Below, piece by piece: positions 46,990 through 63,568 of a stretch of 64,000 nt of DNA. Below the pieces are notes generated by a model that did not search any database, was not told the DNA's origin, and worked only from the letters and a program-made list of their open reading frames with translations. How positions within the stretch are numbered: the stretch's first letter is position 1; each line of letters begins with the position of its first letter. Origin of the DNA: Pseudomonadota bacterium (GTDB lineage: Bacteria > Pseudomonadota > Gammaproteobacteria > Steroidobacterales > MnTg04); the NCBI GenBank assembly GCA_022572885.1, contig JACZVC010000016.1, forward strand, positions 2,646-66,645, written 5' to 3'. The position numbers were made by a program, and so were the translations under genes.

Positions 46990-48159
46990 ATGAACCAGGC
47001 AAGCAAAAAAACAATTGAGTTGTGCCGGCAACTGGTGCGGCGGCCATCGCTGACGCCGGACGATGCCGGTTGCCAGGGCATAATATCGACTCGCCTGGAG
47101 CATCTTGGATTCAAGACAGAGCCGATGAACAACGGCGAGGTAAGCAATCTATGGGCAACCCGCGGCAATGGCGGGCCGCTTTTTTGTTTTGCCGGTCATA
47201 CCGACGTCGTTCCTCCGGGCGACCCGGGAAATTGGTCGACCGACCCTTACTCTGGCGAAATCAGGCACGGATTTTTATTTGGTCGTGGCAGCGCCGATAT
47301 GAAAGGCGCACTGGCGGCGATGGTGACTGCCACCGAAGCGTTCGTTGCGGAAAATCCGTCCCACCGGGGAACGATCGCGTTCTTGCTGACCAGCGACGAA
47401 GAAGGCCCAGCAATAGACGGTACAGCGAAGGTCATGGAAACATTGGTGGACAGAGGCATCGCCATCGATTATTGCCTGATCGGGGAGCCGTCGAGCCAGG
47501 AAAAACTGGCGGACAATATTCGCACCGGCCGGCGAGGATCGTTAACCGGGAAACTGACTGTCGTTGGCGAACAAGGTCATGTGGCCTATCCGGAACTGGC
47601 GCGCAACCCGATCCACCACGTCGCCCCGGTGCTGAGCGAACTGCTTGGCCTGGTATGGGACGACGGCAACAAGGACTTCCCGGCGACCAGTCTGCAGATT
47701 GTTGCCATTGACGCCGGCAGCGGCGCCAGCAACGTAATCCCCGGTCGATTGGAGCTGCTGTTCAACTTTCGTTACTCGCCGGAAACAAACCGGCAAAGCC
47801 TGGTTGCACTTTGTGAGGAGATCCTCGATCGCCACGGTTTGAATTACCAACTGGAATGGGAGCACGGCGGAGCGCCGTTCCACACCCGGGGCGGCAAACT
47901 CATTGAGGTCGTTTGCGAAGTTATCGAAAAAGAGACCGGGCGGGCGCCGCGGACATCCACCTGCGGCGGGACGTCGGACGGTCGTTTTATCGCGCCGCAT
48001 GGGGTCGAGGTCGTCGAGCTTGGCTTGCTCAACAAGTCGATCCACAAAGTCGATGAATGTACGCCGGTTGACGACCTCGAACGACTCAGCAATTTCTATC
48101 GCCAGATCCTCGAAAGAATTCTACTTGAGACCACGTTGAAGGACCTTCAGGCCCGATAA
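46990..48159 (+). CDS. dapE: Succinyl-diaminopimelate desuccinylase (M20 peptidase)
   Basis: 389 aa with LVRRPSLTPDDAGCQ, FAGHTDVVPPG, GRGSADMKG and the SDEEG metal-binding motif. Confidence 0.95.
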   Translation: MNQASKKTIELCRQLVRRPSLTPDDAGCQGIISTRLEHLGFKTEPMNNGEVSNLWATRGNGGPLFCFAGHTDVVPPGDPGNWSTDPYSGEIRHGFLFGRGSADMKGALAAMVTATEAFVAENPSHRGTIAFLLTSDEEGPAIDGTAKVMETLVDRGIAIDYCLIGEPSSQEKLADNIRTGRRGSLTGKLTVVGEQGHVAYPELARNPIHHVAPVLSELLGLVWDDGNKDFPATSLQIVAIDAGSGASNVIPGRLELLFNFRYSPETNRQSLVALCEEILDRHGLNYQLEWEHGGAPFHTRGGKLIEVVCEVIEKETGRAPRTSTCGGTSDGRFIAPHGVEVVELGLLNKSIHKVDECTPVDDLERLSNFYRQILERILLETTLKDLQAR

Positions 48160-48184
48160 AATTTGCCGCCACCGCCAAATTCGC

Positions 48185-49294
48185 TTATTCAAAATCCAAC
48201 GATATTCTGAGCTGAAAAATATTCGGCGTCTCATCGCCATTGATGCCGTTTTCAATATCCGCGCGGACATAATTGGCCATGAATCGCAGCTGCGGATTGA
48301 CGTAATAATTAACGCCCAGCGTAATATTCTTCTCTTCGCCGCCATTGAACACGCCGTCATCCAGATCGATGCTGCTGAAACGGATCCCGAACTCCCAGGC
48401 CCTGGTCGCCTTTGCCCGGCCGAAAGTCCCGTTTTTGTATGGCCGGAATTCGCCGCCTGGAAACCAGCTGAGGTGGGCGTAGTAACCGCTGAAACCCGGA
48501 TCGCCGATGCCCGCTGCCACCTGGTCCACGTCGACCGAGATGAATTCCGCCTGGGCCGACAAGCCGCCCCAACGGGCCGCCAGCTCGATGCCCAGGCTGG
48601 TCGATGAGCTGGCCTGGGTGATCGTGGTGTCAACCAGGCGCGCGCCGGCGACATGCGACTCGGGACGTACCCGGTATCGAAAGGTGTCGTCTTCGGTGCT
48701 CGGGGGTTCCAGCCACATAGCGGCCAGGCCGACATGATACAAAGTCGAATCGGTCTGGGTGTTCCAGGCCCCCCGGCTGGCAAAACCGATCCCCTGGTCG
48801 CCATTGATACTCTGGTTGGCTTCCTTCCCGAACAACATGGCTGACAGCGTCCAGTGCGGTATCGTGCGGTCCCAGCCGATCCCGATGCGTCTGCCCGGGG
48901 CAAAACCTGTCGGCGCCATCGCCCGTTCCATAAAAGGGATTAAATTGCTGCTGGTCAGCACGGCCAGGCTGAACGGCGGTCTTTTGTTGCCGATGGTCAA
49001 CGACCCCCAGTCCGCCGAATACTTTATCCAGGCATCCTTTATGTCTGAGTTACTGGCGAAATCGTACTCAGCCTTGTAGCTCCATTTCTCATCGATTTCG
49101 CCACTGACACCGAGACGAGCCCGACGCAATTCGGTACCGCTGTCCAACGCGGTGACATCTTCGTCGAAGATCGCTGCATCGACATGGACTCTGCCGAAAG
49201 CACTGACGGTCATTTCCCCTGCATGGCCGGCAACGGAAAACGCGCATAACATGACGATCCCGAACCATCTCGGGAAGCAAAACCCTTTGTTCAC
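48185..49294 (-). CDS. Phosphate-selective porin O/P (OprO/OprP) family outer membrane porin
   Basis: It has a signal peptide (VMLCAFSVAGHAGE). GRVHVDAAIFDED...LRRARLGVSGEIDEKWSYKAEYDFA is typical of the Porin_O_P family, and the C-terminus is an aromatic-type ending (RISLDFE). The start is GTG at 49294 with GAGGAT upstream. Confidence 0.85.
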   Translation of the reverse strand: MNKGFCFPRWFGIVMLCAFSVAGHAGEMTVSAFGRVHVDAAIFDEDVTALDSGTELRRARLGVSGEIDEKWSYKAEYDFASNSDIKDAWIKYSADWGSLTIGNKRPPFSLAVLTSSNLIPFMERAMAPTGFAPGRRIGIGWDRTIPHWTLSAMLFGKEANQSINGDQGIGFASRGAWNTQTDSTLYHVGLAAMWLEPPSTEDDTFRYRVRPESHVAGARLVDTTITQASSSTSLGIELAARWGGLSAQAEFISVDVDQVAAGIGDPGFSGYYAHLSWFPGGEFRPYKNGTFGRAKATRAWEFGIRFSSIDLDDGVFNGGEEKNITLGVNYYVNPQLRFMANYVRADIENGINGDETPNIFQLRISLDFE

Positions 49295-49405
49295 TCATTT
49301 ATCCTCAAAAGACAGTTCGTCTCGAACCGCGTTTCGGATGCGGAATGGGCGGCATTTTCTCCCAATACCGCAACAATTGCATCAGTATTTTCCGCAACCG
49401 GCAGC

Positions 49406-49900
49406 TTACCGAGTACTCGGGCGCAAGTTGTTAAAGGTCCCTGCCGCACCCAGAAAAAGGAGGGAAATCAATACCCATGCGGGCATGCTCAGGCCAGCAA
49501 AGCTCCAGTCCACGACCGCGCATTCGCCCGATCCTTCAAAGATCATCGACAAAGCCTGGGTTAACGGAAAGGCATCAAGAATGTATTCCAGGCCGGGGCC
49601 GCAGACAGGCACCTGATCGGGTGGCAGACTTTGCAGCCACAGGTGTCTGCTCGCCACCCCAATACCACTCCCCGCAACCACTACGATCATCGCGGCATAA
49701 ATTCTTTTTCCCAGGCGGCCAGGGTCATGGATTGCCGCGGCAAGAAAAACCAGGCCAACGCCGATCACCGCGAAGCGCTGGAAAGCGCACAGCGGACAAG
49801 GATTCAGGCCATCGACATACTGGCTGTAAAGGGCAAAAGCCATCATCGATAGGCAGGCTGAAAACCCCACCAGGTTTAGCAATCTCTGACTCACCGACAT
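49406..49900 (-). CDS. dsbB: Disulfide bond formation protein B
   Basis: 164 aa with 4 TM. The first periplasmic loop carries CxxC (NPCPLCAFQR) and a second Cys pair lies in loop 2. Confidence 0.9.
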   Translation of the reverse strand: MSVSQRLLNLVGFSACLSMMAFALYSQYVDGLNPCPLCAFQRFAVIGVGLVFLAAAIHDPGRLGKRIYAAMIVVVAGSGIGVASRHLWLQSLPPDQVPVCGPGLEYILDAFPLTQALSMIFEGSGECAVVDWSFAGLSMPAWVLISLLFLGAAGTFNNLRPSTR

Positions 49901-49907
49901 TCTCCAG

Positions 49908-50579
49908 TCAACCGGTAACCTTGTCGCGCAAATAAACCGGCAAGGCCTGCTCGGGTCTTAGCGGCTCCTGATGCCCAACCAGGGCAACCGCCAGCAGCGC
50001 TATTTCCGCGGCCCGCGGCAGGCAATCGGCATCTTCGCCGGCCAGTTTTTTGCGTACCGCGCCAAGCTCGGCGACATAGGCCGAAAAACCATTCCCCGCA
50101 CCATACCAGTCAGCTTCCTCGGGTACCTTGACATCCGCCGGAAGGTTGACCGATTCCTGCCCCACCAACTCGACCAGGTCCTGCTCAGCAGAAACCCGGT
50201 AGCTAGCCTGATAGACCTCTTGCATCCTTGCATCGGTCAACACCAGCACTTTGTCCCAACCATGTTTTTTGCCTGCTTGCAGTGCCAGCGCTGCCAGGTC
50301 GGATACGCCAAACACCGGGATATCCTGACTCAGCGCAAGGCCCTGTACCACGCCGGCCGCAATACGAACGCCGGTAAACCCACCCGGCCCACGACCGAAG
50401 GCCAGGTAGTCCAGCTGTTTTAGCTGGACGCCGGAGGCAGACAACAACTCGTCGATCATCGGCAGGATCAGCTCGTTGTGGCGGCGTGGCGCAACGACAT
50501 AACGATCGGTGATTTCCCCATCCAGCAGCAAAGCCGCCGAACAGGCTTCGGTCGCTGTATCGAGCGCAAGAATTTTCAC
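49908..50579 (-). CDS. tsaB: tRNA threonylcarbamoyladenosine biosynthesis protein TsaB (YeaZ)
   Basis: (V)KILALDTATEACSAALL and FGRGPGGFTGVRIA are present. The GTG start overlaps the helicase stop (GTGA). Confidence 0.92.
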   Translation of the reverse strand: MKILALDTATEACSAALLLDGEITDRYVVAPRRHNELILPMIDELLSASGVQLKQLDYLAFGRGPGGFTGVRIAAGVVQGLALSQDIPVFGVSDLAALALQAGKKHGWDKVLVLTDARMQEVYQASYRVSAEQDLVELVGQESVNLPADVKVPEEADWYGAGNGFSAYVAELGAVRKKLAGEDADCLPRAAEIALLAVALVGHQEPLRPEQALPVYLRDKVTG

Positions 50580-52483
50580 GATCCGGCTTCTCCTTCTGCC
50601 AGCAAATTAATGGCTCGTTCGATATCCTCGGTCACCGGCATATCGGGCAGACTTTTCAGGAACAGTTTACCGTATGGCTTGCTTTGCAATCGCGGATCCC
50701 CGAGCACCACGACGCCGGTGTCGGTTTCCGAGCGTATCAACCGGCCGACGCCTTGCTTGAGTGCGAGTACGGCCTGCGGTAATTGATGCTCGAAAAAAGC
50801 GTTGCCGCCCGCTTCGGTGATTGCCGCGATGCGTGCCCGCGTCAGCGGATCGTCCGGTGAGGCAAACGGCAGCTTGTCGATTAGCACCAGGCCGAGCGCC
50901 GGCCCGCGCACATCGACGCCTTCCCAGAAACTGGCCGCACCCAGCAACATCGCGTTGCCCTGGCGTCTGAATTCCTGCAGCAGCAGGTTACGCGGCATCT
51001 GGCCCTGGACGAGTACCGCCCGCTCAGGATTTTCTCCCCAGCGCTCCTCGAGCAACGCTGCCACCTCGCGTAATGCGCGGTGGCTGGTAAACAGGAAAAA
51101 GACCCCGCCGCGGCAAGCATCGATCAGCGGCAGACACTCCTCCAGCAATAACCTCGTAAACTGTGGATCAGCAGGAACTGGCAGGTCTTTTGGCATAAAA
51201 ATCAGAGTATTGTGCTGATAATCGAAAGGACTTTCCAATTTCAGGTCGCTGGCCTCTTCGAGCCCCAGCCGACCCTTGAGATGAGAAAAATCGTCACCGA
51301 CGGCCAGCGTCGCCGAGGTGAAAATCCAGCCGCAATCGAGGCTGTTTACGAAGCGCCCGAGGCTCTCCGACACATCGTACGGGGTCAGGTTCAGGCTAAA
51401 TCCACGCGCCGTGGTTTCCAGCCAGCGGATGCCTTTTTGATCGCTTTTGCGGATCGTCTCGATGCGTTCCAGCGAGACGACCAGCCGCTGATAGCACTGC
51501 GCCAGCCCCGGTGTTTTTTCCGCTATTTCATCCAGCTTCGCAATCAACTCGCCGAGCCTGTCATCGAGCCTGCCCAGTGCCAGTTCGCTTTCGGTATCCA
51601 GGTTTTCGTAATCGCTGCGTCCTTTTTGCAAAGTCAGGCGAAGATCGGCGAGCCGCGCAGGCAGGCCGTCGAGCAAGGATTCGGTTTCAGCATCGTGAAT
51701 CGCCGCCGCCAGTAATTCGGCGCGGGTATCGCGGGCGATATTTTCCAGTTGCCTGCTGCTGACGCTGAGCCCGAAAAACTGGCCGGCTATTTTTGGCAAC
51801 TGGTGCGCTTCATCGACGACCACCGCATCGACACCCGGCAACAATTCACCGAAGCCTTCTTCTTTCAACACCATGTCGGCCAGCAACAAGTGGTGATTGA
51901 CGATAACGATATCCGCGTCCATCGCCTCGCGTCTGGCCCTGGCCACGCAACAACCGGAATACACCGGGCACTCCTGGCCCAGGCAGTTCTCGCTGGTCGA
52001 GGTTACCTGCGGCCAGACCGGCGATTGCTCCGGCAAGCCGGACAATTCGGCAATGTCTCCGCTTTGGGTACTCAGCGCCCAGGCCCTGATTTGCTGCAAG
52101 TGGCGCCCCGGCCTGCCCCGCATGTCCTCCGCCAGGGACAAGCGGTGATGGCACAGGTAGTTGGCTCTTCCTTTGAGGATCGCCACTTTGACCGGCCGGC
52201 CGAGCGCGCGCGACAGTTCGGGCATGTCCTTGTCGAAAAGCTGGTCCTGCAGATTGCGCGTGCCGGTCGAAATAACGATGCGGATACCGGACAGCAGTGC
52301 GGGCACCAGGTAAGCGAAAGTCTTGCCGGTACCGGTGCCGGCTTCGACCAGCAGCCGTCCGCAGGAAGCCAGCGCAGCGCTGACCGCCATCGCCATTTCC
52401 TGTTGCGCCGGGCGCGGCGTGTAGCCTTCTATGGCATTCGACAACGGGCCATCGGCGGCAAAAATGTCGCTAAGATCCTGCAT
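50576..52483 (-). CDS. yoaA: DinG-family ATP-dependent DNA helicase, YoaA-like
   Basis: 635 aa with Walker A (EAGTGTGKTFAYL) and a DEAH box (VVVDEAHQL). A Cys cluster in the Fe-S insertion reads CHHR...CLGQECPVYSGCC. The N-terminus is alignable by eye to E. coli YoaA. Confidence 0.85.
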   Translation of the reverse strand: MQDLSDIFAADGPLSNAIEGYTPRPAQQEMAMAVSAALASCGRLLVEAGTGTGKTFAYLVPALLSGIRIVISTGTRNLQDQLFDKDMPELSRALGRPVKVAILKGRANYLCHHRLSLAEDMRGRPGRHLQQIRAWALSTQSGDIAELSGLPEQSPVWPQVTSTSENCLGQECPVYSGCCVARARREAMDADIVIVNHHLLLADMVLKEEGFGELLPGVDAVVVDEAHQLPKIAGQFFGLSVSSRQLENIARDTRAELLAAAIHDAETESLLDGLPARLADLRLTLQKGRSDYENLDTESELALGRLDDRLGELIAKLDEIAEKTPGLAQCYQRLVVSLERIETIRKSDQKGIRWLETTARGFSLNLTPYDVSESLGRFVNSLDCGWIFTSATLAVGDDFSHLKGRLGLEEASDLKLESPFDYQHNTLIFMPKDLPVPADPQFTRLLLEECLPLIDACRGGVFFLFTSHRALREVAALLEERWGENPERAVLVQGQMPRNLLLQEFRRQGNAMLLGAASFWEGVDVRGPALGLVLIDKLPFASPDDPLTRARIAAITEAGGNAFFEHQLPQAVLALKQGVGRLIRSETDTGVVVLGDPRLQSKPYGKLFLKSLPDMPVTEDIERAINLLAEGEAGS

Positions 52484-52593: not shown

Positions 52594-55500
52594 TTAGCGC
52601 AAGCCGGTAGCGCTTTGTTTTAACCCTCGTTTCAGCCAGTCTTTCAGCGAATCCTGGTCGAGCTTGATGCGGAACTTGAGGTACGGCCCCTGCGCCGTGT
52701 AACGGGCTTCGGTGAAATCTGCGTCGTGGAAACCGATGATGTTGTAGCCGATGCTGAGCCAGGCGTTCTTCATCACCATGTGACCGATATCCGCGCCGAG
52801 GCCATATTTCACGACCTTCGACTTCCATGTATGCAGGACACTGGCATGCAGGCCCCAGTCCCATTGCGGGTCAATGTCCCGGCGCATGCCGATGCCAAGC
52901 AGATCGGTAAAGCCGGTGTAACCGGTATCCGAATAATTACTGCGCACGTATTTTGCGGCGTACTGGAACGAGAACTGGACATCCAATGCCGGCTTCCAGT
53001 TGGCATTGAAATTGTTGACGACTTTCCAGCTACGCTGGTCGATGCTGCCCAGGTGCTGTTCCTCGTAAATCAGATCGAGCCGGTCAAATATGATCCAGCG
53101 GCTCAAGTCGGGCCGGTAAGCCCAGTTCAGCCGCAGATCACTGGTCGTCGTGCGCCCGCCGGCGGTCGGTTTGTCGCTGAACAAATGCAGACCGACCGAG
53201 AAACCATGACCCGCGATTTCTTCCCGGTACAAGCCGCCGAGAATGCCGAACCGTTCGCCGCTGTCGGCGTTACGATATTCAACCCGTCCGGTCGCCGACC
53301 AGACTTCCGCCCGGTAGGTCGCGCCGGCCCAGGTCGCGACGAAGTCGTCATTGCTGCCGGAAGCCAGCGGGAAATCGCTTTGCAGCGGCTGCACGCTCGC
53401 GCCGGCGATGGTGTTGGCATGGTCAACGCCGAAATCCAGCAACAGCTTTTCGGTCAGTTGCACGCCCTGGGTCAGTCCCAGCGTCGCGAAAGTGCGCGGC
53501 CCGTACTCGCTCGACTGCTGGTTGAGCGTGCTGCTGAATTCAGCCTGGTTCCACGGCTTGGCCCTGATCCCGACGCGCGTCATGTCGGTTTCGATATCCG
53601 CACCTTTGGTAGTCTCATATTCGGTGAACACCGTGATGCTGTCGCGCAGCTTGAAATCGACGCCCAGCGTCTTGCGCTGCGGGAAATCGGCATTGGCGTC
53701 GTTATCAGAGAGGACGATTTCGGTCGAGCCGCGCAAGGTCACCCGCCGGTCCAGCACATCGATCGACCCGCCCAGGTAAAGCTGCTGCGAGTCCTGGGTG
53801 TTGCCGAGGGCGTCCTTGTCGGACGCGTCGATAAAGCCAATCGTCGCGCTCCGGTTGCTTTGCCGATAAGTCAGTTCGGTCAGAATCGCGTCCCGGGTAA
53901 CGCCGGACTGCAGGTTTTTCTGGCGGAACACATCGGCGGTCAGATCGAGATGCTCGTTGAGCTTGTAACGGCCGTCGAAACCGGTTTTCCGGGTGCCGCT
54001 TTCGCTGGCAAGCTGATGGCCCAGGCCGAATCCACTTTCCTGTTGGCGGAAATACGCGCGACCGGTAAGACCTGCGCTCTGGTGGCTCAACTCAGCCAGG
54101 TAAGCGTCGCCACCGACATCGATACCCGCACGGGTTCCATCGCTGCGCGCGACCTCCAGCTTCAGTTGGGTCGCTTCACCCATCTGCCAGCGCAGATCGA
54201 CGGCGCCGAGGTCGCCTTCGTTACCACTGTCGCCCTGGTGAATATAACTGGCGCCGATTTCGATCAGGCCATCCGCCGAGCGCAGTGATGCGCGCCCACC
54301 GCCGCTGGTGTCTGTACCATTTGCGTTGCGGCTTTCGTACTCGACGATGATGAATAACGGGTTAAAGAGTTCGTCTCGGCTCGGTACCGGTTTCTTGAAG
54401 TAGACCGTACCCGCCAGGTAGTCGATGTTGTAATCGAGATAGCGGGTCAGCGTTTTCGTGCTGATGATCTGTTCGCTGCGGAAACGATCGCGCACCACCA
54501 GCCTGATTTGTTCGCTGTTGAGCACGATGTCTGCCGCGCTGAGCCGGTACAGGCCCGAGGTCCCGTTACCCTGGATCTCGTCTTTGACAAAAATCTGATC
54601 GGTCCGCGCGGCAAACGCGCTGTAGGCGAGCGTGCGCCCGCGATACTCGGAGCGAACACCATTGAGACGGCGGTTGTAACGCGCCAGCTCGGTGACCGTC
54701 AGAGCGGTTTCGTAATCGCCGAACAAGGCATAGAACTGGTTTCTTTCCAGCTTGAGGTAGAGTTTTTCCTGGCTGGATGCTTCGTAGCCTTGCTCGGTGC
54801 TATCGCCGTACAGGGTATAGAACTGCCGCGGGTCGATGGTGCCGAACAATTTCCGGCGGGCTTCGTCTTTATCTTTTGCCGTGTCATAAGCCATCGTCAG
54901 CAGGTATTCACCCTTGATGCGGCCCTTGGCAAAGAATGCGATGCGGCCATCCTCATAGAAATCGTCTTCAATCCCGCTCAGGTCAGCGAGTTGTGCGTTG
55001 TCCTTGATGTCGTTGTAGCCCAGCGTGGTTTCGGCAAGACCGACCAGGATCCAGTCACGGATTTCCGGTTTGAGCCAGACGCGGATCTCTTGTTCGCGCT
55101 GGTCGGCGAATTTGAAATGCAACACCGCCTCACCGGAAACCGTCGTCGGCTCCAGTTCGATTAGCGCGACACCATCGTCGCCAACCGTGTAAACCGGCTC
55201 CCGCTCGCCGATGGCAACCAGCGGGTTTTCTTTGAGCGATTCCACTTCCCACCATGACCGGCGCGGCGGATTGACATAGAAATTTCCGATCGTGCGCGGT
55301 CGCGCGGGCTCGCCCCAGCGATCGTACATCTGTATGGCAATAACCGGGCGGGTCCGGCCATCGGCGATCAGCACCGATGCCTCGACCCGAACCTCGGCCC
55401 GCTGCGGCCCACCGGCGTAATGGATCTTGCGAGTCAGGCGTTTGACCTCATTGCCATTCTTATCACGGAACACAGCATCGAGTTCATTGCTGCCGTCGAT

Positions 55501-58500
55501 CAGGTTGATACCGCGCCAACGACTCAGGCTCACCGATTTGCTTGCCGTCGTCCGCGTGCCTTCAAAACTCAGAGCACTGATTTGCAAGCCGTTGACGAAC
55601 AGTTCGACGGTCTGCTGCGGGTCGTGTTTGACCGCAACCTTGAGGCTGGGGATCGGCGGCCGGTAGCCATCCTTCGGCCAGACCCAGCCGATGCCCGGCG
55701 CCAAGCTGTCAAGCAGTGCCGGGTCGTCGTATAGCGCATCGGGATCGGGCAACGACTCCTGCTTCCGCTGCTCGCCAGTCAGATACTCTTCGCGCGACGA
55801 CCGCTGGACGGTGTCCACAGCCAGGATACCGCTGCTGGCCTGGGTCACCTGCGCTTTTTCCGGGCTCAGCATTCTTTCACCCCAGACATGCAATTCGACC
55901 CGCCGGTTAACGCGTCTGTCCTCTGCGGTTCTTTCCACGACCAACGGCTGATCGGCGCCTTTGCCTTCGACGCTGATCTGATCCGGGGAAAGGCCCAGCT
56001 GGGCCGCAATGTAATCCGCGACGCTTCTCGCCCTCGCTTCTGAAAGCGCGTAATTGTCAGCGAACAAAAAACGGCTGCGCGCGGCAATTCTTGTATTGTC
56101 CGTGTGGCCAACGGAGCGCAGGTGGAGATTGGTCAAACCCTCCCAGTCGGCTACGACAATGTCGAGTTCAGCCTCGTCCTGCTCGCTCAAGATCGTTTCC
56201 AGTGTCGGAAAATGCGGAGTAAATATATAGTCAAACCGGTCCACTGAGGCTGGCGACAGTTGCAACCGGTTTTCTGCAACCGGCGTGCGTAATTTCTTTT
56301 CGAGCGGCGAGTCAAAATTGATCAACGCCTTGCTGATCAGTTCACCATCCAACTCGGGTCCGATCGCGGCGCGGAAACGGATCTCCTGCTGCCAGTCCTT
56401 GCCGTCGGGCAATGGGAAATTGAGCATGCGACCACTTTGCGCGTAATCGCTGACCGGCTGGCCGTCTATGCGGGCGGTCCCGGACACATAAGTGAGGCCT
56501 TCGGGCAACAGCACTATCACCCGGACATTGGTCACCGGCACATCGGTGACAGTCGCGCTCAGCCGGTAATCGACCTGGCGTTTTTGCGATAGCAATCGGC
56601 TGTCCATGCTGACGCTGACCTGTCCTTTCGCCGGTTCGAGTTCGCGCAGATAAAAATCGGCGCGCCACAACGAGCCTGGCTGCAACTCGACGAACTGCGT
56701 CGATTTGCTGCCGGCGAATCGAGTGTTGTCCTCACAGGCAATCAGTTCGACGTATGGCGGTATCGTGACGGTGTCAACCTGCACGACATGCGTGCCGGGT
56801 TTCAGTCCTTCGAAGTGGTAACGGCCATTCTCATCGGTGACCACGTAACGCCCGTCTTCCAGGTATATACGCACACCGCCGATGCCGGTTTCCTCATCAC
56901 CGGAATCGTTCTTGCAACTTCCAAGCAGGACTCGGCCGGCCAGTAAACTCTCACTGCCAAGCAGATCTTCGGCGATGTTCACGACCGCGGTGGCGGCATT
57001 GGACAGCAGGCCACCGTTGGTAGACGCCTGTGCCTGGTTGATCGCCTTGCCAAGTGGGGCCCCGGCCGCGACTTCGACGACATAGGCGATAGCGACGCTG
57101 CCAGCCGCCGGCAGCACGCCGATATCGATGGTCATCTGGCGTCCATCGGGACCGATCAGCGGGTCGGCGGCGGCGATGCCATCGATGGTCAGCGAGCCCG
57201 CCTGGTATTTGAAACCGACCGGCAGCTGATCGGTGATCACGGTGCCCGTCAGGTTCCCAAGCGCCGAGGTATTTTCCAGCACCAACTGGTACTGCACAAA
57301 ATCACCGATCGCGGCAACGCCGTTGCCGGTGGTTTTCTGCAGGAACAGCTCGGTGCTTAGCAGGTCCAGTGGCAGATCCACTGCGAAGCCTGGCTCCGGC
57401 CCGCTGGCGAGCACGTTGCCAAACGAACCCGGACCCAGCGCGTACGGTGCGCCCGGCAGTAATTGCAATTCGGCGATCGTCCGTGTCGAGGGCGCGACAA
57501 ACCCCGCCGACGGTATCACCTGAATCCGGTAATTCCCCGGCGGCACGACCGGGAAGCGGTATTCACCGCTGGCGAAATTGTAACTGGTGCCGCCGCTGTC
57601 GGTGACGGTACCGCCTGAAAGAACAGTCGACGGAAAAATACTGATGCCATCGTCGCCAAACACTTGTGCTGGCAAGCCGCTGGCATCGTCCAGCAGCGTA
57701 ATGCTGGCGCCGTCGATCGGCTGGCCGAGCTGCGAATCAAACACGCGACTGTATGGATCGACCCTGACGTTGTCGCCAGACTGGTCGCTGGCGTCCGCCG
57801 GATCGACATAGTCGGCAGAGACCTGGCCGCCGGCCGATAACTGGAGCACACAATCTCCCGGCACTGGATTTCCGGACGCGCTCTGCAGATAACCCGCGAA
57901 TACACCGCTGTCCACCGCGGTTTCGGTCAGCAGAATCTCTTCATTGTCACCAGCCGGAGAACCCTGCAAGATCACGCTCACCGTTTCCCGCACCAACGGG
58001 TCCAGGTTTTGATCCGCATCGGCGACCCGCACAAACACCGCTTCGCCGACGTGATACGAAAGACTGTCCACGACGGTTTGCGGCTGGTTCGGGTCGATGC
58101 TGATGCCACCGGTCAGCAACGGATCCGGCAACGCAACGAAGCCGGTACCCGATAAGTTACAAGACGCCGGCCCGATCGCCTCCACGAGCCCCGGGGCGCC
58201 AGGCAGCACCCGTGTCAGGTCGAGAATACTGGCGGTCCTGGGCACTACGGTGACAATTTCAACCAGATTGCTGATCACTGTTTCCGGCAGACCAGATGGA
58301 GCCTGATAATCGAGGGTTGCGAGGTTCGGAATAATCGTTCCGGGCGGGGTCTGAGCCACCGCCGGCAACGCCGAAAGCAGTCCCAATAAAAGCAAAAAAG
58401 CCCGGACCGGGCGAATTAGAGACGACGATTTTTTCGTCGGTTTCTGATCAGGTGGCGGTCTCCTCCCGGAACCTGAGCCCCGGTCTGAACGCAAGCCGGG

Positions 58501-58575
58501 GCCGCCGACCGAACCACCGGAATTTCCGGTGGTTCGGCCGCGTCCCCGTAACGAGTATGCGCCCAAGAAGATCAA
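52594..58575 (-). CDS. Giant (up to 1993 aa) secreted/outer-membrane protein with Ig-like repeats, an internal OmpA-like domain and a long barrel-like C-terminal region
   Basis: A single uninterrupted ORF. A signal-like segment ([22 protein letters not shown]) lies at aa ~53-75. DUF11/TIGR01451-like segments are present ([81 protein letters not shown]). CarboxypepD_reg/SdrD-B-like segments are also present ([50 protein letters not shown]). An OmpA_C-like motif lies at aa ~795-900 ([13 protein letters not shown]...[16 protein letters not shown]...GKGADQPLV...NRRVELHV). The last ~800 aa have alternating-polarity strands rich in aromatic and Gly residues. The start is uncertain because there is no ATG before the signal segment, and the listed start is TTG. 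Confidence 0.8.
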   Translation of the reverse strand: [1993 protein letters not shown]

Positions 58576-58591
58576 GAGGAGAATTCCCGGG

Positions 58592-59737
58592 CTACTGTAT
58601 CGTGACCCGGAAGCTCACCGTGGCGACATCGGCCGGGTTCAGCGTGACAGCGTTGACTGTCACGATGTTCGCGGCGAATACGCCCTGATCAGCATCAGCC
58701 TCTTCCGTCAGATCGGTAACGACTGCGTTGATATCGAGCTGGATATCAAACACATTGCCAACACCGTACTGATTGGACGTGAACGCAATCCTGCCGGCGC
58801 CGATTTCAACCGACAAATCATCGGCAATCGTGACAGTGGTCGCTTGCGCGGTGCCGGTATTCGTCACCGTGATCGTGTATTCGACGATCGCGCCGGGAAC
58901 GGCCAATGGATTGGTCGTGCCGTTGAACGGATCCGAGATTACAGTGGACGCTTTGACAATCGTCAGCACCGCCGCCTGCACCAGGAATGCATCCCGGTCG
59001 GAAGCCTGACCATCCACAGCACCGTCATCGGTCGAGGTGACCGCGGGGAAGTCGTCGGCAAACACCACATCGACCGATCCGGGCGTATCCGCACCGACAG
59101 TCTCCGCCGTCAGCGCATCCAGTACCCCCGAGGTCGAATCATGCGTCGTCGCCTGCAGCGAAACACCGATCACCGCGCCATTGACGGCGCCAACGGGAAT
59201 ATCCGCAACCACCCAGACGGTGCGCGTTTCATCGGCAGCCATCGCGTTGAGGAAGGTCACGACCACGTCAGCACCATCGAATGTGTTGCTGCCATCGTCC
59301 AGGTATATGGTGATGGTGGTTGCGTCACTGGTTGCGCTGTCGCTGTCGGTCAGCGCTGCGCTGAACGGCACGGAAGCACCGTCACCCAGGTTGACCGCTG
59401 CCAGGGCATAGTCTTGCTCCGTATTGCCTTCGTTGGTCACCGTAAACCCCAGTATCTGCGGGTCGACAAAACCGGCGACCAGCTGGCCGGGAACGACCAC
59501 TGCCGCGCTGTCGCTGATTTCGGCAACCAGCACGTCGACCATGTTGTCCACGACAAAAACCGCGGGCGCGCTGGTGACCGGCGTTTGCGCGACGCCGCCA
59601 CTGGAAAAGTTGACCGTGGCGTCGTTGGAGATCGACGTCCCCGAAGGCGTACCGACCGCGAAGGTCGTCTGGGCAAACATCAGACCCAGCAGACCGACAA
59701 GCACGCCAAGGCGCGTTATCTTTGCTTGAGTTTTCAT
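58592..59737 (-). CDS. Secreted DUF11/TIGR01451 repeat-domain protein (381 aa), candidate fibre subunit
   Basis: The ATG has a GAGGAG SD. A signal peptide is present (ITRLGVLVGLLGLMFAQTTFA). The composition is Thr/Val/Asp/Ala-rich beta type. The C-terminal DUF11 pattern reads PGAIVEYTITVTNTGTAQATTVTIADDL...VSFRVTIQ. It is a paralogue of the 323-aa protein. Confidence 0.8.
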   Translation of the reverse strand: MKTQAKITRLGVLVGLLGLMFAQTTFAVGTPSGTSISNDATVNFSSGGVAQTPVTSAPAVFVVDNMVDVLVAEISDSAAVVVPGQLVAGFVDPQILGFTVTNEGNTEQDYALAAVNLGDGASVPFSAALTDSDSATSDATTITIYLDDGSNTFDGADVVVTFLNAMAADETRTVWVVADIPVGAVNGAVIGVSLQATTHDSTSGVLDALTAETVGADTPGSVDVVFADDFPAVTSTDDGAVDGQASDRDAFLVQAAVLTIVKASTVISDPFNGTTNPLAVPGAIVEYTITVTNTGTAQATTVTIADDLSVEIGAGRIAFTSNQYGVGNVFDIQLDINAVVTDLTEEADADQGVFAANIVTVNAVTLNPADVATVSFRVTIQ

Positions 59738-59915
59738 TTCTTTCTCCTCGTTTCATAACCCTTGCGGGCGCATACAGGTATAAAAACCGGCGCACGAATA
59801 CCTGCACTCCGTGCACCATCCCCCGTTCAAAAATGAAATTTTCTAAATCTTTCTTGTTATTTTTTAGCTACCGCCAGCACCGGCTTCTTGCCGGCAGCGG
59901 CGGTTAGCTTGTTGT

Positions 59916-60422
59916 TCACTGCAGCCGCGTGCGAAAACGGGCAAAACCCTGCGCACCCGGTTGTAGTTCGTTCCTCAGTATCCAGCGTATATCCGTATAG
60001 TCGGATGCCTGCGCCGGCCGCTGGCTGCCATCTGGCGCAGTCACCACCAGTTCTTCGGGCGTACCCCAGCTCTGTCCGCCATCGATCGAAAAACTGATAT
60101 CGGCGCCGGGTCCGAAAGCGGTCCCATCCACGTATTCCATGTGCCGCGGCACCGGGTTGGTAATCACGACGCTTTCCGCCGGCTCGCTGCCGGTATTGGA
60201 AAAACTGACGGTGTAGATGACGATATCGCCAGGTACGACCTTGCTGGCCGGCTCAAGACGGGTAACCGTTTCACCATTGGCGTCGGTCTCGATGATTTCC
60301 ACATCGGCCGAAGTCTGGATCTGAATAACCCCGGTTTCCTGTGGCGTCGCGACGAATGACATCAGAAACAGCGCCAGCAAGCCGAGCGAGCGAGCGATAA
60401 TTTTGTTGTTGAAAGTTTTCAT
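59916..60422 (-). CDS. Small secreted single-DUF11-domain protein (168 aa)
   Basis: A signal peptide is present (IIARSLGLLALFLMSFVATPQ). There is one TIGR01451-like domain (PGDIVIYTVSFSNTGSEPAESVVITNPVPRHMEYVDGTA). The start lies 11 nt after the stop of the upstream gene. Confidence 0.8.
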   Translation of the reverse strand: MKTFNNKIIARSLGLLALFLMSFVATPQETGVIQIQTSADVEIIETDANGETVTRLEPASKVVPGDIVIYTVSFSNTGSEPAESVVITNPVPRHMEYVDGTAFGPGADISFSIDGGQSWGTPEELVVTAPDGSQRPAQASDYTDIRWILRNELQPGAQGFARFRTRLQ

Positions 60423-60433
60423 GGTTTATCCCC

Positions 60434-61405
60434 TTAGTTGATGACCACGGTAAATGCGATGGTTTGCGGTCCATCCGCCGAATCCAGATCGCCCAGCGAC
60501 ACGGTTACTGCGCCACCGACAAACGCGCCGGCATCGGCATCCGGTGCATCGGTCAGCGGACCGCCGTTCAATGTCAAAGAACCTGCCTGGTAGGTGGTAA
60601 AAGGCGGAATCGGATCAGTGAAAGTCGCGTTGATTGCCGTGCCCGAACCACTCGCGGTCACCACAATCTGGTAGGTGATCTGTGCGCCCGGTATTGGCTC
60701 GGTCCCGCCAAACGGATCGACAACCGATGCTGACTTGACGATTGACAGCGAAACGTTGCTGACGATGTAGGTGCCGGTATCGGCATCATCGCCGCCATTG
60801 GCACCGACCACCGCATCGGTACCCAGATCGCCCTGGCCACCAAAAACATCGCCCGGGGCGCCGGTTCCGGTCAGGGAAGTCGCGGTCAGCTCGCTAAAAC
60901 CCTGGTTGCCGTCGACCAGCCCGAGCGGGATATCGTTGACCAGCAGAATATTGACCGAGGCGTCCGGCGCCAGTTGCGGGTCATTGACCCCGGCATTGTA
61001 CGGGGTGTCGCCGGCGGACAGGTCGCCGCTGCCATCGCTGTCAAAAAAGATCGATGGCGCCGCCGGGACCGGATCGAAATCATCGCCAGGCAAGGCGCTG
61101 TCGATAGCCAGGGTGAAATCCTCGGTGCCGTTACCGGTGTTGGTCACGGTAAACAGCAACGAGCGATTGGCGTCGCCCGGCGTCACCGGGACGATCGGGC
61201 TCTGCAACAGGACGTTGACATCGAGGATCTCGGCCACGGTGACCACCAGGATGTTCGAGCTCTGCGACACCGGCGTGCCGGCGATCAGGTAATCGACCTG
61301 GGCGGAATTCGCGATATCCGTACCCGCAGTGGTACCCACTGCGTATACGGGTTGCGAACCGATCAGGGCTCCCAGCAAAAGCAAAAACATCGGTGTCCGT
61401 CTCAT
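60434..61405 (-). CDS. Secreted DUF11/TIGR01451 repeat-domain protein (323 aa), candidate fibre subunit
   Basis: ATG 61405 is preceded by AAGGAG. A signal peptide is present (MRRTPMFLLLLGALIGSQPVYA). The C-terminal DUF11 pattern reads PGAQITYQIVVTASGSGTAINATFTDPIPPFTTYQAGSLTLNG...IAFTVVIN. The track ORF starts 11 codons earlier at 61438. Confidence 0.8.
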   Translation of the reverse strand: MRRTPMFLLLLGALIGSQPVYAVGTTAGTDIANSAQVDYLIAGTPVSQSSNILVVTVAEILDVNVLLQSPIVPVTPGDANRSLLFTVTNTGNGTEDFTLAIDSALPGDDFDPVPAAPSIFFDSDGSGDLSAGDTPYNAGVNDPQLAPDASVNILLVNDIPLGLVDGNQGFSELTATSLTGTGAPGDVFGGQGDLGTDAVVGANGGDDADTGTYIVSNVSLSIVKSASVVDPFGGTEPIPGAQITYQIVVTASGSGTAINATFTDPIPPFTTYQAGSLTLNGGPLTDAPDADAGAFVGGAVTVSLGDLDSADGPQTIAFTVVIN

Positions 61406-61605
61406 TATTGGCTCCTTACGCCGCCTTGCACTTGCCATCTGTTTATGGACGCGGGTACAAGCTGCAAAAACCCCCGCGAATTGAGTGTGTTACCGGAGCG
61501 AATATAGGTTAATCCGCGAAGTAACATAATGGTTTGGTGCTTATTTTCCCGAATTATTTGACAGTTATTTCTGAAATTGTGAACGGCGTCACAAGCATTC
61601 GCGTC

Positions 61606-61845
61606 ATGCCAAACACTGGCGACACTGGAAAAAAAGAATCGGGGGCAAAACGGCCTTGTGCCAAAGCGGGGAAGAAAGCCCGGGCCAACAAAAAAACAGC
61701 CGGTGCGCCCCGGAAACCGGCTACTACAAAAGCGAAAAAAACCCGAACTAAGCGGAAAACCAGCGGCCAGGCCGCGCCGGCCTCCGTGTATGCCCTGGAT
61801 CAGGTGCCGAACCGCGCCAACACGGAAGAGGTGCCGCACCTGTGA
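61606..61845 (+). CDS. Small lysine-rich basic protein (79 aa), hypothetical
   Basis: The product is MPNTGDTGKKESGAKRPCAKAGKKARANKKTAGAPRKPATTKAKKTRTKRKTSGQAAPASVYALDQVPNRANTEEVPHL. Third-position G+C is better in this frame than in the overlapping alternatives. There is no clear SD. It may be the 5' part of a frameshifted relic (see findings). Confidence 0.35.
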   Translation: MPNTGDTGKKESGAKRPCAKAGKKARANKKTAGAPRKPATTKAKKTRTKRKTSGQAAPASVYALDQVPNRANTEEVPHL

Positions 61846-61983
61846 ACAAGTACTCGGTGCCAATCCGCTCATCGGTTTTGACGGTCGTGAAGTCCTTGGC
61901 GCCATCGGTGGCTTGTTCCGGATACTCTCAGTCAGAGCGGACTTCGTCATCCGCGAACAATACTGCTACCCATAGCGTCTCGG

Positions 61984-63147
61984 TCAGGCAGATACCTGGC
62001 TAAATCTGATCTTTAAGCATCCCTTACCAAGACTTTGATCGTTCCGTCCGCGGAGCGTGTAGCCGATCGACACTGTCTTTCCCTGCATGTCGGGCCCCAC
62101 CGCCAGCCGCAAGTCGCTTTCAAAAGCCTGCTCCGGGCTGTCAGGGGGGAGCAAGCCGAGCGAGCTGCGCACCAGTATTTTGTCATCGCGGCGCTGTACC
62201 TCCGGGTAGCCTGGCTTTTCGACCTCATGCCGAGAGCGTTTGTCATCCGGGCTGATATACAGGCGATCGGCCACATCCAAATCCGGAATTCGCGGAAAAG
62301 CGAGTACAATGCTCACATCCTTGATGCCCTTTGCACCCTTGTTGCAAACTGTCAGATTCAGTTTCACTGCTCGTTCTTCGAAAAAGTAGTAGTTATCGGC
62401 GTCGGCAAACTTTTTTTCGGGCTCTTCGTATACGCCAATCAACGTATCCATGCCACGCGCATCGAATTCGGCATCAGGACCATATTCACGTACGTGCGTC
62501 ATTCGCATAATTTTTGTGTTTAGCGTACCGAAACTATCTTTAATCGCCTTTTTGAAATCCAAGCTCTTCTTAACTTTCCGTTTTTCCCCGGCAGATGGCG
62601 GATTAGAGGTGTCAGGCACGGGCGACTCGAACAACGCACAGTCCGGCCGGCCATTGAAACCCACCATAATCGTGGGTTGATTGGCCGCCTCGTGCGCGCT
62701 GATCTGAGCGAGCTCAGTGCAATCGACGGCGCGAAGTTGCCGGCCCTCTCGGATCCAGGACTGACCGCGCGAAAGCTTTTCGGAGAAATCCTGCCTGACG
62801 ACATACGGCCCGTCATCGCAACCGTCAATTTCCAGAGCGCCAACGAGCTTGTTGTTAATCCTGTCGTAGATGAATGCCAGGTGGAGAACCGGTTCGATCA
62901 GTGCCGATGACAGCCGATGGGCTTTCTTCAGATCGGTCATGACGCTGTCAGCGATACCGACGATACGGCTGCCAGCCATGGCTCCCGCATTGATCCCAAA
63001 CAGGATATACCGGGGGCCATCGACATCGGCGTTGGCCAGGCCGATGACCTCCTTGACCAACTCCTCCTGATCCTGCTCCCGGAAAGGATCGCAAACGAGC
63101 AGGTTTGCGGAGGTTAGTGATCGTTCTAGCAATTGCTTCAGGAGCAT
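61984..63147 (-). CDS. Hypothetical protein with an N-terminal Schlafen/AlbA_2-like (divergent AAA) domain
   Basis: 387-394 aa (ATG 63147 or GTG 63168). EELVKEVIGLANADVDGPRYILFGIN...RIVGI...LEIDGCDDGPYVVRQDF...SWIREGRQLR follows the AlbA_2 layout by eye (conserved ANxxGG-like loop, IGV strand, P-Y-V strand, IR-G). The C-terminal ~220 aa are unassigned. The gene has lower G+C than the core region. Confidence 0.55.
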   Translation of the reverse strand: MLLKQLLERSLTSANLLVCDPFREQDQEELVKEVIGLANADVDGPRYILFGINAGAMAGSRIVGIADSVMTDLKKAHRLSSALIEPVLHLAFIYDRINNKLVGALEIDGCDDGPYVVRQDFSEKLSRGQSWIREGRQLRAVDCTELAQISAHEAANQPTIMVGFNGRPDCALFESPVPDTSNPPSAGEKRKVKKSLDFKKAIKDSFGTLNTKIMRMTHVREYGPDAEFDARGMDTLIGVYEEPEKKFADADNYYFFEERAVKLNLTVCNKGAKGIKDVSIVLAFPRIPDLDVADRLYISPDDKRSRHEVEKPGYPEVQRRDDKILVRSSLGLLPPDSPEQAFESDLRLAVGPDMQGKTVSIGYTLRGRNDQSLGKGCLKIRFSQVSA

Positions 63148-63568
63148 GACATTGACCGGAAATCGCACTTACCGATAACTCTAGATGCTACGCCTTACAT
63201 GATTCTGCGATGGCAGTCTCAGTTTCCTGATCTGATCCGTTCGGGTATCCAGCCTTTTTTGCCACTTGGGCTTCTACCGGCGTGGACCTGTCTGGCATTC
63301 CAGATGTTTCCTTAACTTCATAAAATATTCCGATGATGTGAACCGGATCACACTGTCGGTCGGACCTTCCTCTCGAACCGGCATGCCGTTCACATCCAAA
63401 ACGCCACTAACTCTCTAATATTTCGAAAGTGATCGTGTCTGGCGAGAGTTGATCCAGGCCTGAAATCCGCGATACTGAGGGAACGACACTGCCACGAATT
63501 AGCAATGAGTCGATAGGTGACCCTTTTTCGTATACGTTATTGGGATGGCAATAAATAGCTTGAATACC

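Follow-up and report, generated by a model that had tools for sequence, protein, structure and literature searches.

Split CLIPPER domains in a conserved gene cluster of Woeseiaceae and Steroidobacteraceae: candidate parts of a strand-complemented surface fibre

The 64-kb (64,000-nt) stretch of contig JACZVC010000016.1 considered here, hereafter the window, contains a cluster of four genes on its minus strand, namely g1, g2, g3 and a very large fourth gene referred to as the giant, and was analysed by computation throughout. The cluster is set apart by CLIPPER domains (DUF11, CnaA-like) that appear, as judged from the protein sequences, to be split between polypeptides: g1, g2 and g3 each end in such a domain without its last two strands, and g1, g3 and the giant each begin with an extension that looks like the missing pair. 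This splitting is a new finding that goes beyond the initial annotation of the window, which had suggested a surface fibre with a dedicated assembly or anchoring platform. To the proposal developed below, that the cluster specifies a strand-complemented surface fibre, probably locked covalently, with the giant as its anchor and pore, we give about equal credence for and against.

Truncated CLIPPER domains and their N-terminal complements

The CLIPPER fold is comprised of nine strands, with a CnaA-like isopeptide bond between strand 1 and the penultimate strand; the crystal structure shows this bond between Lys715 and Asn806 and places Asp748, presumed to be the catalyst, close by (PMC12617251). 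At the sequence level, the full Lys/Asp/Asn triad occurs within one domain only at residues 410-540 of the giant (the Lys in LFLQK, the Asp in VITDQ and the Asn in AINQAQAS) and in no domain of g1, g2 or g3, and this complete domain served as the internal reference for the nine-strand fold. Its C-terminal part reads ...VAIAYVVEV-AAGAPLGKAINQAQAS-TNGGLLSNAATAVVNI, and g1, g2 and g3 stop at the position of ...VVEV, where TIAFTVVIN, GFARFRTRLQ and TVSFRVTIQ, respectively, are followed directly by the stop codon. As these ends match strand 7 of the nine-strand fold, the three proteins would be without strands 8 and 9, and it is strand 8 that normally holds the isopeptide Asn.

The profile alignments describe the same truncation. 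On an intact-domain profile of 150 template columns, the C-terminal (acceptor) domains of g1 and g3 occupy only columns 14-98 and 12-98, respectively (hhalign), and in isolation the C-terminal domains match Pfam DUF11 no further than profile position 53-57 of 114 (57 in g1). The N-terminal domains of g1 and g3 gave no detectable match to the DUF11 template by hhalign. The TIGR01451 repeat pattern that had been attributed to the three small proteins and the giant is indeed above cut-off in all four (NCBIfam profile search; 36 bits in g1). For Pfam DUF11 (PF01345), the gathering score is exceeded by g2 and by residues 410-519 of the giant, and g1 and g3 fall just short of it.

What is retained in the acceptors of g1 and g3 is strongly conserved over the 52 sequences in which residues were counted. 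Lys224 and Asp230 of g1 are found in 52/52 and Asp264 in 51/52, while in g3 Lys262 is present in 52/52 and residue 306 is always acidic (47 Asp, 5 Glu). The g2 protein consists of a truncated DUF11 domain (Pfam DUF11 28.5 bits, TIGR01451 44.9 bits) with no N-terminal donor; its canonical Lys position is variable (Lys in 19, Gln in 13 and Thr in 12 of 52), and Asn89 stands in place of the catalytic Asp, as an Asn does in 48/52. Separately, g2 orthologues bear a Cys at alignment position 32 in 27/52 and at position 78 in 27/52, occupied by Val32 and Gly78 in the g2 of the window, and these probably form a Cys32/Cys78 disulfide in one subgroup.

In g1, g3 and the giant, the extension (donor) starts directly after the signal-peptide cut, and orthologue alignment reveals a motif common to the three mature N-termini, GTxAGTxIxNxAxVxY...SN..V.V. 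A six-frame translation of the 64-kb window contains this motif exactly three times, each 10-11 residues past the cleavage site. In the g1 donor, which hhalign aligns colinearly with strand 8 of the complete domain of the giant, residues G24, G28, T29, I31 and A35 show little or no variation, and Asn33 is found in 40/52. Conservation of the g3 donor is stricter still at Asn38, Gln51 and Tyr/Phe44 (each 52/52), followed by Ala40 and Val42 (each 49/52), and the Asn of the giant's donor (Asn84) is present at 50/52 loci (96%) and in 48/53 motif-positive members of the diverse wider family.

Appending the donors extends the truncated domains in the manner expected of missing strands. With the donor in place, the g1 and g3 domains match DUF11 to profile position 96-97, where the intact cis domain reaches 98, and the g3 domain joined to the donor of the giant matches to position 79; appending the g3 donor likewise lengthens the match to the DUF7619 profile. 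Against the intact-domain profile, domain-donor chimeras are colinear to columns 113-128, with the donor Asn aligned on the cis Asn (hhalign). Neither a chimeric domain nor the intact cis domain, used as a sequence query against the PDB, returned a useful match, and the CLIPPER structure 9IFR was not matched either. The plausible subunit interface sought in the initial annotation can thus be named in a sequence-derived form, as truncated C-terminal DUF11 domains with matching N-terminal extensions, and these extensions look like strands 8 and 9 of the truncated domains (Table 1).

Table 1. Genes, predicted domains and stem-loops of the cluster (window coordinates)
Feature	Position	Strand	Description
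g1	60434..61405	(-)	Secreted two-domain protein, 323 aa (334 aa from alternative ATG at 61438)
g1 donor extension	61232..61339	(-)	aa 23-58, VGTTAGTDIANSAQVDY...SSNILVVTV; putative strands 8' and 9'
g1 acceptor domain	60437..60763	(-)	aa 215-323, truncated DUF11/CLIPPER, ends at strand 7
g2	59916..60422	(-)	Secreted single-domain protein, 168 aa
Stem-loop directly 3' of g2 stop	59866..59909	(-)	Best 60-nt hairpin -30.5 kcal/mol
g3	58592..59737	(-)	Secreted two-domain protein, 381 aa
g3 donor extension	59546..59656	(-)	aa 28-64, VGTPSGTSISNDATVNF...APAVFVVD
g3 acceptor domain	58595..58981	(-)	aa 253-381, truncated DUF11/CLIPPER, ends TVSFRVTIQ-stop
Stem-loop between g3 and the probable start of the giant	58497..58548	(-)	Best 60-nt hairpin -46.1 kcal/mol
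Giant	52594..58575	(-)	Open reading frame of 1,993 codons; mature protein ~1,919 aa from Gln75
Giant donor extension	58240..58353	(-)	aa 75-112, QTPPGTIIPNLATLDYQ...ISNLVEIVTVV
Complete DUF11/CLIPPER domain	56956..57348	(-)	Giant aa 410-540; Pfam DUF11 37.6 bits, profile positions 2-98; TIGR01451 51.4 bits
OmpA_C-like domain	55903..56202	(-)	Giant aa 792-891; PF00691 44.7 bits vs cut-off 27.2
Two Ig-like beta-sandwich domains	55063..55644	(-)	Giant aa 978-1171; AlphaFold2 model residues 53-246, pLDDT mostly 70-90
Predicted outer-membrane beta-barrel	52666..54360	(-)	Giant aa ~1406-1970, ~32 strands, then short C-terminal helix

A proposed route to the fibre

The arrangement of donors and acceptors has a polarity, in that g2 accepts only, the giant donates only, and g1 and g3 do both; to call g1 and g3 paralogous subunits, as had been done initially, understates this key feature. 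The cluster would accordingly be read as encoding a surface fibre complete in itself, or at the least a stalk of several proteins, formed through trans-complemented split CLIPPER (DUF11, CnaA-like) domains. The N-terminal extension of one subunit would insert into the open C-terminal domain of the next distal subunit, and this insertion would rebuild the normal tandem-domain junction across two polypeptides. The invariant Lys and Asp in the acceptors of g1 and g3 would probably go on to lock the joint by catalysing the spontaneous formation of an isopeptide bond, presumably an intermolecular Lys-Asn bond between neighbouring subunits. Since g2 only accepts it would occupy the distal tip, and since the giant only donates it would form the base, giving g2, g1, repeated g3 and the giant as the most likely order from tip to base, with g1 the candidate adaptor, g2 the candidate tip or cap and g3 the candidate major shaft subunit.

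At the base, a stalk of isopeptide-type Ig domains in the giant would pass load to the OmpA-like, peptidoglycan-binding domain, and the ~32-strand barrel in the outer membrane would be the only candidate conduit for folded subunits and for the giant's own stalk. Without an encoded periplasmic chaperone, the subunits may chaperone themselves, each closed on its own N-terminal strand until this is displaced. A closed, self-chaperoned monomer state of this kind has been proposed for TasA. The same has been proposed for TafA (PMC11821415).

Architecture of the giant

The N-terminal half of the giant is built of isopeptide-type Ig domains, namely the complete CLIPPER domain, one weak CLIPPER domain and two CnaB-like domains, and a Pfam search of the kind suggested in the initial annotation did find OmpA (PF00691) and CarboxypepD_reg/SdrD_B in this protein. 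The OmpA_C-like domain, which is also covered by many NCBIfam matches of the OmpA/MotB/TssL type, would bind peptidoglycan. No Pfam match was found for the two Ig-like domains that follow it, nor does any Pfam model cover the last ~1,070 aa, and PF13505 is recorded in some homologues of the giant.

The barrel that had been suggested for the giant is also predicted by an AlphaFold2 model of its last 1,068 residues (30 sequences in the alignment; mean predicted local distance difference test score, pLDDT, 67.5), in which DSSP assigns 32 consecutive strands to model residues 481-1045, with pLDDT mostly 80-90. Foldseek matches of this model in the PDB are to large outer-membrane barrels only (BtuB, SlpA, LptD, MtrB and SprA); BtuB is the top match, and the matches carry a probability of 1.0 but template-modelling (TM) scores of no more than 0.3.

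Relatives of the giant vary in the stalk. The giants P0361, P0343 and P0305 are 2,600-3,000 aa in length with much longer N-terminal stalks; P0361 and P0343 have cadherin domains there, with no OmpA domain detected in either at E <= 1e-4, and in P0305 there are two DUF7933 domains, and OmpA is matched in three stretches. The presence of cadherin domains in the stalks of relatives suggests that the stalk is extracellular.

Known assembly machinery

The earlier statement that no chaperone, usher, sortase, pilus ATPase, secretin, TpsB or type I secretion system component lies in or beside the cluster agrees with Pfam and NCBIfam searches. No Pfam match to a PapD-like chaperone (PF00345/PF02753) was obtained in the four proteins or in eight neighbouring open reading frames (ORFs) of the window. 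The Usher family (PF00577) does not match the giant, and PapC and FimD are absent from the top 50 Foldseek matches in the PDB. Among 80 related loci there is no recurrent neighbour resembling a chaperone, usher, sortase, ATPase or secretin, as judged by clustering of flanking ORFs with no Pfam scan. The flanks within the window hold no sortase, and there is no LPXTG at the C-termini of g1, g2 and g3 (...FTVVIN, ...FRTRLQ and ...FRVTIQ, each before the stop). The lipobox of type V pili (FimA/Mfa1 of Bacteroidota) is likewise missing, the signal peptides ending in A-x-A without a Cys at +1. No Pfam autotransporter match was found, and the predicted barrel of the giant has ~32 strands vs 12-16 and is separated from the stalk by the OmpA domain and two Ig domains. 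Finally, no TasA-like fold or SipW was matched by Pfam or NCBIfam, and the cluster contains no signal peptidase gene. No pathway that is already characterized emerged for the homologues: their names are generic, no NCBIfam equivalog fits, and a literature search for this cluster found no description.

Pairing in cis or in trans

Pairing of the extensions in trans, rather than in cis, is suggested by the architecture, with an open domain and no donor in g2 and a donor in the giant. No domain of the giant without its last strands was identified (residues 113-280 are not assigned to any domain), and g2 is mostly without the Lys and Asp, which only g1 and g3 supply; for these reasons, the conserved Asn of the giant's donor would make sense only if paired in trans with g1 or g3.

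A coherent but unlikely alternative is that g1 and g3 are closed monomers, the extension of each completing its own C-terminal domain by circular permutation, with an intramolecular isopeptide bond. Only the donor of the giant and the acceptor of g2 would then pair in trans, such that the giant, with g2 as its cap, would in itself be one fibrillar adhesin, leaving g1 and g3 as separate proteins, either soluble or at the surface. The AlphaFold2 model of mature g3 is in keeping with this view, as it is compact and very confident (pLDDT 93.4; predicted TM score 0.83), and pLDDT values of 90-97 across the N-terminal extension indicate that the model has it docked within a sheet. If the two domains packed antiparallel and side by side, Ig-domain topology would permit such closure with zero-length linkers, and each donor covaries most with the acceptor domain of its own protein. 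Foldseek matches of the g3 model are to generic tandem-Ig proteins, BcpA among them. However, AlphaFold2 self-complements donor-strand pilins, and the g3 monomer model therefore cannot separate cis from trans. The 'closed' monomer model of TafA serves as a precedent (PMC11821415). Closed monomers would also leave the giant's donor Asn (96%) without a partner, given that g2 is without the canonical Lys in 33/52 and has Asn for Asp in 48/52, and would leave unexplained both the strict co-conservation and order of g1 and g3 with g2 and the giant and the hairpin that follows g3.

Several observations nonetheless weigh against a trans-complemented fibre. The confident closed monomer of g3 is equally well accommodated by permanent cis closure, in circularly permuted g1 and g3. 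An appended donor raises the score by little (+2 to +4 bits with DUF11, +3 with hhalign), and mean-field direct-coupling analysis of 125 g3 sequences (effective number 93) gave no enriched contacts between the extension and the C-terminal domain, a result that is uninformative. Correlation of distance matrices is found mainly between a donor and the acceptor of its own protein (0.27 and 0.33) and gives no signal for heterotypic joints; only same-protein pairs remained, and the subunit order is not established by this means. The g1 donor Asn and the g2 canonical Lys are each often absent, with no clear covariation between them. With respect to the giant, the modelled region between the Ig domains and the barrel (residues 1172-1400) is of low confidence, some members of the family have no detected OmpA domain, and the passage of a folded stalk through the barrel, with the OmpA domain lying between them on the same chain, is unexplained.

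Two further candidate signals were rejected. An apparent pairing of the giant donor with g2 (partial r = 0.47) fell to 0.09 after controlling for the giant's own divergence, and covariation of Asn33 of g1 with the Lys of g2 depends on including a non-canonical Lys at a distance of five residues, the canonical position having no association.

Gene organization and signals of expression

The four same-strand ORFs are present at the coordinates first assigned to them, and the gaps of 11, 178 and 16 nt between them are right for the ORF starts as then given. The start of the giant is nevertheless doubtful, because a 15-bp stem-loop (~58497-58548) lies within the first 80 nt of the ORF, 3' of the TTG at 58575 taken as its start, and the signal peptide (...RAFLLLLGLLSALPAVA, cut before QTPPGT) starts only ~55 codons into the ORF. 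The TTG is probably not the real start, which would lie near 58494 or later, and the true gap between g3 and the giant is probably ~100 nt. An N-terminal signal-like segment, reported earlier for all four products, is evident by eye in their translations.

Stem-loops follow both g2 and g3 (Table 1). Between the first of these and g3 lie an AT-rich stretch and an AGGAG ribosome-binding site, and g3 may have its own promoter; a promoter and terminator scan returned nothing above shuffled expectation. The 121-nt stretch with the post-g3 stem-loop folds at -62.6 kcal/mol (z = -4.9 vs shuffles), and over the 51 loci with all four genes complete the median best hairpin at this site is -31.5 kcal/mol vs -23 kcal/mol in coding controls, with 57% of loci vs 8% of controls at or below -30 kcal/mol. 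This stem-loop is probably an attenuator or mRNA stabiliser that sets expression of g3 above that of the giant. A terminator-like hairpin (GCCCGGTCCGGGC, then TTTTTTGCTT; window 58400-58412, minus strand) also lies inside the signal-peptide codons of the giant, a potential second site of attenuation, downstream of g3 and ahead of the main body of the giant gene. The g3 protein is the most divergent subunit (mean pairwise distance 0.60-0.64) and this divergence, together with its own AT-rich leader and ribosome-binding site and the conserved hairpin, suggests that g3 is an abundant and exposed shaft subunit.

On the downstream side of the giant, the cluster is flanked by genes for a DinG/YoaA-type helicase, TsaB, DsbB, an M20/DapE-like peptidase and a phosphate-selective porin (window 46990-52483), which recur at this side of 27-42 of the 80 loci and in L083; the cluster therefore occupies a fixed chromosomal position and is vertically inherited, and does not lie on a mobile island. 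Upstream of g1 are a 181-aa ORF without a family match (window 61405-61950, minus strand), which overlaps the alternative start of g1, and a 394-aa Schlafen/AlbA_2 protein (window 61984-63168, minus strand), neither of which recurs at any of the 80 related loci.

Distribution and conservation

Gene order was judged at those of the 80 related loci where the upstream DNA was long enough. The co-conservation called for initially is plain to see: g1, g2, g3 and the giant occur in this order on one strand in nearly all such loci, with g1 orthologues (E 1e-68 to 1e-114) first in the cluster and full-length orthologues of the giant at 65/80 loci. A genome scan confirmed at least 549 matches as relatives, mostly in Steroidobacteraceae and Woeseiaceae (families represented here mainly by metagenome-assembled genomes) with some in delta-proteobacterial bins, and a cultured carrier of the cluster is Povalibacter uvarum DSM 26723 (L032).

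The exceptions to the order are L025 (3112-6300, minus strand) and L027 (3145-6120, minus strand); in these, as in the variant locus L081 (2388-3755, minus strand), g1 is absent and replaced by a divergently transcribed protein of 455-1,062 aa. In L025 and L027 this protein is ~1,000 aa in length and has a C-terminal DUF11 domain that stops at strand 7 (...SFTIRLRVRVR-stop) with no N-terminal donor motif; in L081 it contains DUF3344 plus CLIPPER. These replacements are possibly alternative large tip adhesins. In L081 (7148-13012), gene calling divides the giant among three abutting ORFs (363, 587 and 1,003 aa; junctions 8239/8241 and 10004/10001), either because the stalk, the CLIPPER-OmpA part and the barrel truly have a gene each or because of frameshift errors in the assembly.

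Used as a query, the last 1,068 residues of the giant match more than 2,000 proteins, all of them generically named (hypothetical, OmpA family, TIGR01451 repeat). A profile search with the barrel module against 1.84 billion representative proteins gave 4,539 clusters at 50% identity, 2,391 of them at E <= 1e-30. The best 150 of these matches, all close relatives, have the module at their C-terminus, and full-length members are mostly 1,600-3,000 aa long. Homologues of ~1,000 aa that seemed to be barrel-only, and thus candidates for a separable barrel gene, were discarded, since P0118 (L082) and P0036 (L083) begin 64-169 nt from a contig end and are truncated gene calls, with no separate architecture.

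The hairpins and variant loci bear on a further alternative, in which the same strand complementation would build a fixed 1:1:1:1 envelope complex, that is, a short stalk or tether on a barrel anchored in the outer membrane and to peptidoglycan, with no polymer. Its role would be like that of Deinococcus SlpA or OmpA, and it might even be partly periplasmic. The numbers of donors and acceptors (exactly three of each) suit such a complex, as does the union in one protein of a peptidoglycan-binding domain and a barrel of ~30 strands, as in SlpA (8ae1; Foldseek TM score normalized to the target 0.28), and polymer length is without evidence. We judge it improbable all the same: the g3 donor covaries with the acceptor of g3 itself, which is compatible with homopolymerisation; the attenuator-like hairpin, along with the ribosome-binding site and AT-rich leader of g3, suggests an excess of g3 over the giant; and the variant loci have more acceptor-only proteins than donors, a better fit to alternative tips on a polymer.

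TonB-dependent receptors often have a CarboxypepD_reg domain at the N-terminus. The CarboxypepD_reg matches in the giant, together with the TonB-dependent transporter BtuB as the top Foldseek match, might evoke a large-substrate outer-membrane channel or uptake receptor beside three DUF11 proteins exported by a general pathway as independent secreted adhesins or substrate-binding accessories, but unrelated functions of this sort are very improbable, as the TM-scores (0.13-0.3) reflect barrel shape alone, the giant has no Pfam match to a plug or TonB-dependent receptor, the small proteins are without the lipobox of SusD/E/F-type lipoproteins, and the pattern of truncated domains, matching extensions and invariant Lys/Asp/Asn would be ignored.

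Of the earlier account of a fibre on an anchoring platform, then, what could be searched for has held up, from the conserved gene order to the barrel and the candidate interface, with no known pathway emerging; the fibre itself, the role of the barrel as an export pore and the surface location are what we infer, as are pairing in trans, formation of the covalent bond, polymer length and subunit order. The broader claim, that the cluster represents a new class of Gram-negative pilus, core to Woeseiaceae and Steroidobacteraceae, with split CLIPPER domains, two-strand exchange and Lys-Asn self-ligation, with no chaperone, usher, sortase or ATPase, and with the giant as terminal subunit, stalk, anchor and ~32-strand pore, is tentative, and we would sooner doubt than assert it.

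Comparison with known systems

The proposed fibre resembles the chaperone-usher pili (Fim/Pap) of E. coli, whose pilins have an incomplete Ig fold and an N-terminal donor extension; the cluster shows an analogous sequence pattern in an unrelated fold, in the form of domains truncated after strand 7 and N-terminal extensions that may insert in trans. The polarity is the same: FimH at the tip is acceptor-only, as is g2, and PapH, the last subunit, donates but cannot be extended, as would hold for the giant. In both, a large outer-membrane barrel lies at the base, with no ATPase. A hairpin follows papA, the gene for a chaperone-usher major subunit, as one does g3. The present cluster differs, however, in having no PapD-like chaperone and no Usher-family protein, in its CnaA-like CLIPPER fold with two donated strands vs one, in a Lys/Asp/Asn triad that suggests a covalent lock, and in a barrel of ~32 vs 24 strands that is fused to the terminal subunit, the stalk and the OmpA domain.

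The BsaA fibres of C. perfringens and the TasA/TapA fibres of B. subtilis share with it strand exchange, an Asn-Lys lock (in BsaA) and a monomer that is possibly its own chaperone. TapA is a donor-only nucleator anchored to the cell. These systems are of another fold family, Gram-positive and SipW-dependent, with no outer-membrane component. In BsaA, an N-terminal strand enters the neighbouring subunit, and the donor Asn bonds with the acceptor Lys in the presence of an acidic catalyst (N35-K74/E56; PMC11580942). The archaeal thread, composed of Saci_0406, also combines head-to-tail donor-strand complementation with proposed intermolecular isopeptide bonds, in this case between the N-terminal amine of Asp24 and Asn57 of subunit n+2 (PMC9715654). 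Threads resemble the proposed fibre in this combination and in having no known assembly machinery, but they are archaeal, have no outer membrane and no Lys-Asn pair derived from a split domain, and bear no sequence relation to the cluster. A lock that combines donor exchange with an isopeptide bond is, in itself, therefore not without precedent (BsaA, PMC11580942; archaeal threads, PMC9715654).

Sortase pili (SpaA, BcpA and Spy0128) have shafts of CnaA/CnaB Ig-like domains with Lys-Asn bonds, covalent joints and a peptidoglycan-anchored base. In the cluster described here there is no sortase or LPXTG, the proposed bond would be autocatalytic in the reconstituted domain, and attachment to peptidoglycan would be non-covalent, through the OmpA-like domain. 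The CLIPPER/DUF11 fibrillar adhesins belong to the same domain family, and the giant has a complete CLIPPER domain with Lys/Asp/Asn in a stalk of isopeptide type, but the domains described in those adhesins are intact and their bonds intramolecular (PMC12617251), whereas here the domain appears split between polypeptides. Deinococcus SlpA, itself among the Foldseek matches, unites a large barrel (30 strands) and a cell-wall-binding domain in one protein; the TM-score is only ~0.25-0.28, however, and SlpA has an SLH domain and a coiled coil, with no donor strand or partner subunits. In SpyTag/SpyCatcher and SnoopTag/SnoopCatcher, the strand with a reactive residue has been split from an isopeptide domain, and the two parts ligate spontaneously in trans. 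Those are laboratory constructs, whereas the split here would be natural and genome-encoded.

Concluding remarks

If correct, the proposal would describe a new route to covalently linked fibres in diderms without a dedicated chaperone, usher, sortase or energy source, in which one protein would combine the functions of pore, anchor and terminal subunit. The presence of the cluster in the cultured strain P. uvarum DSM 26723 makes this reading directly testable. It would further provide a role for an uncharacterised protein family that comprises more than 4,500 clusters (50% identity) and is represented in at least 549 species, and an isopeptide domain that naturally acts in trans could be a source of new orthogonal tags for protein ligation.

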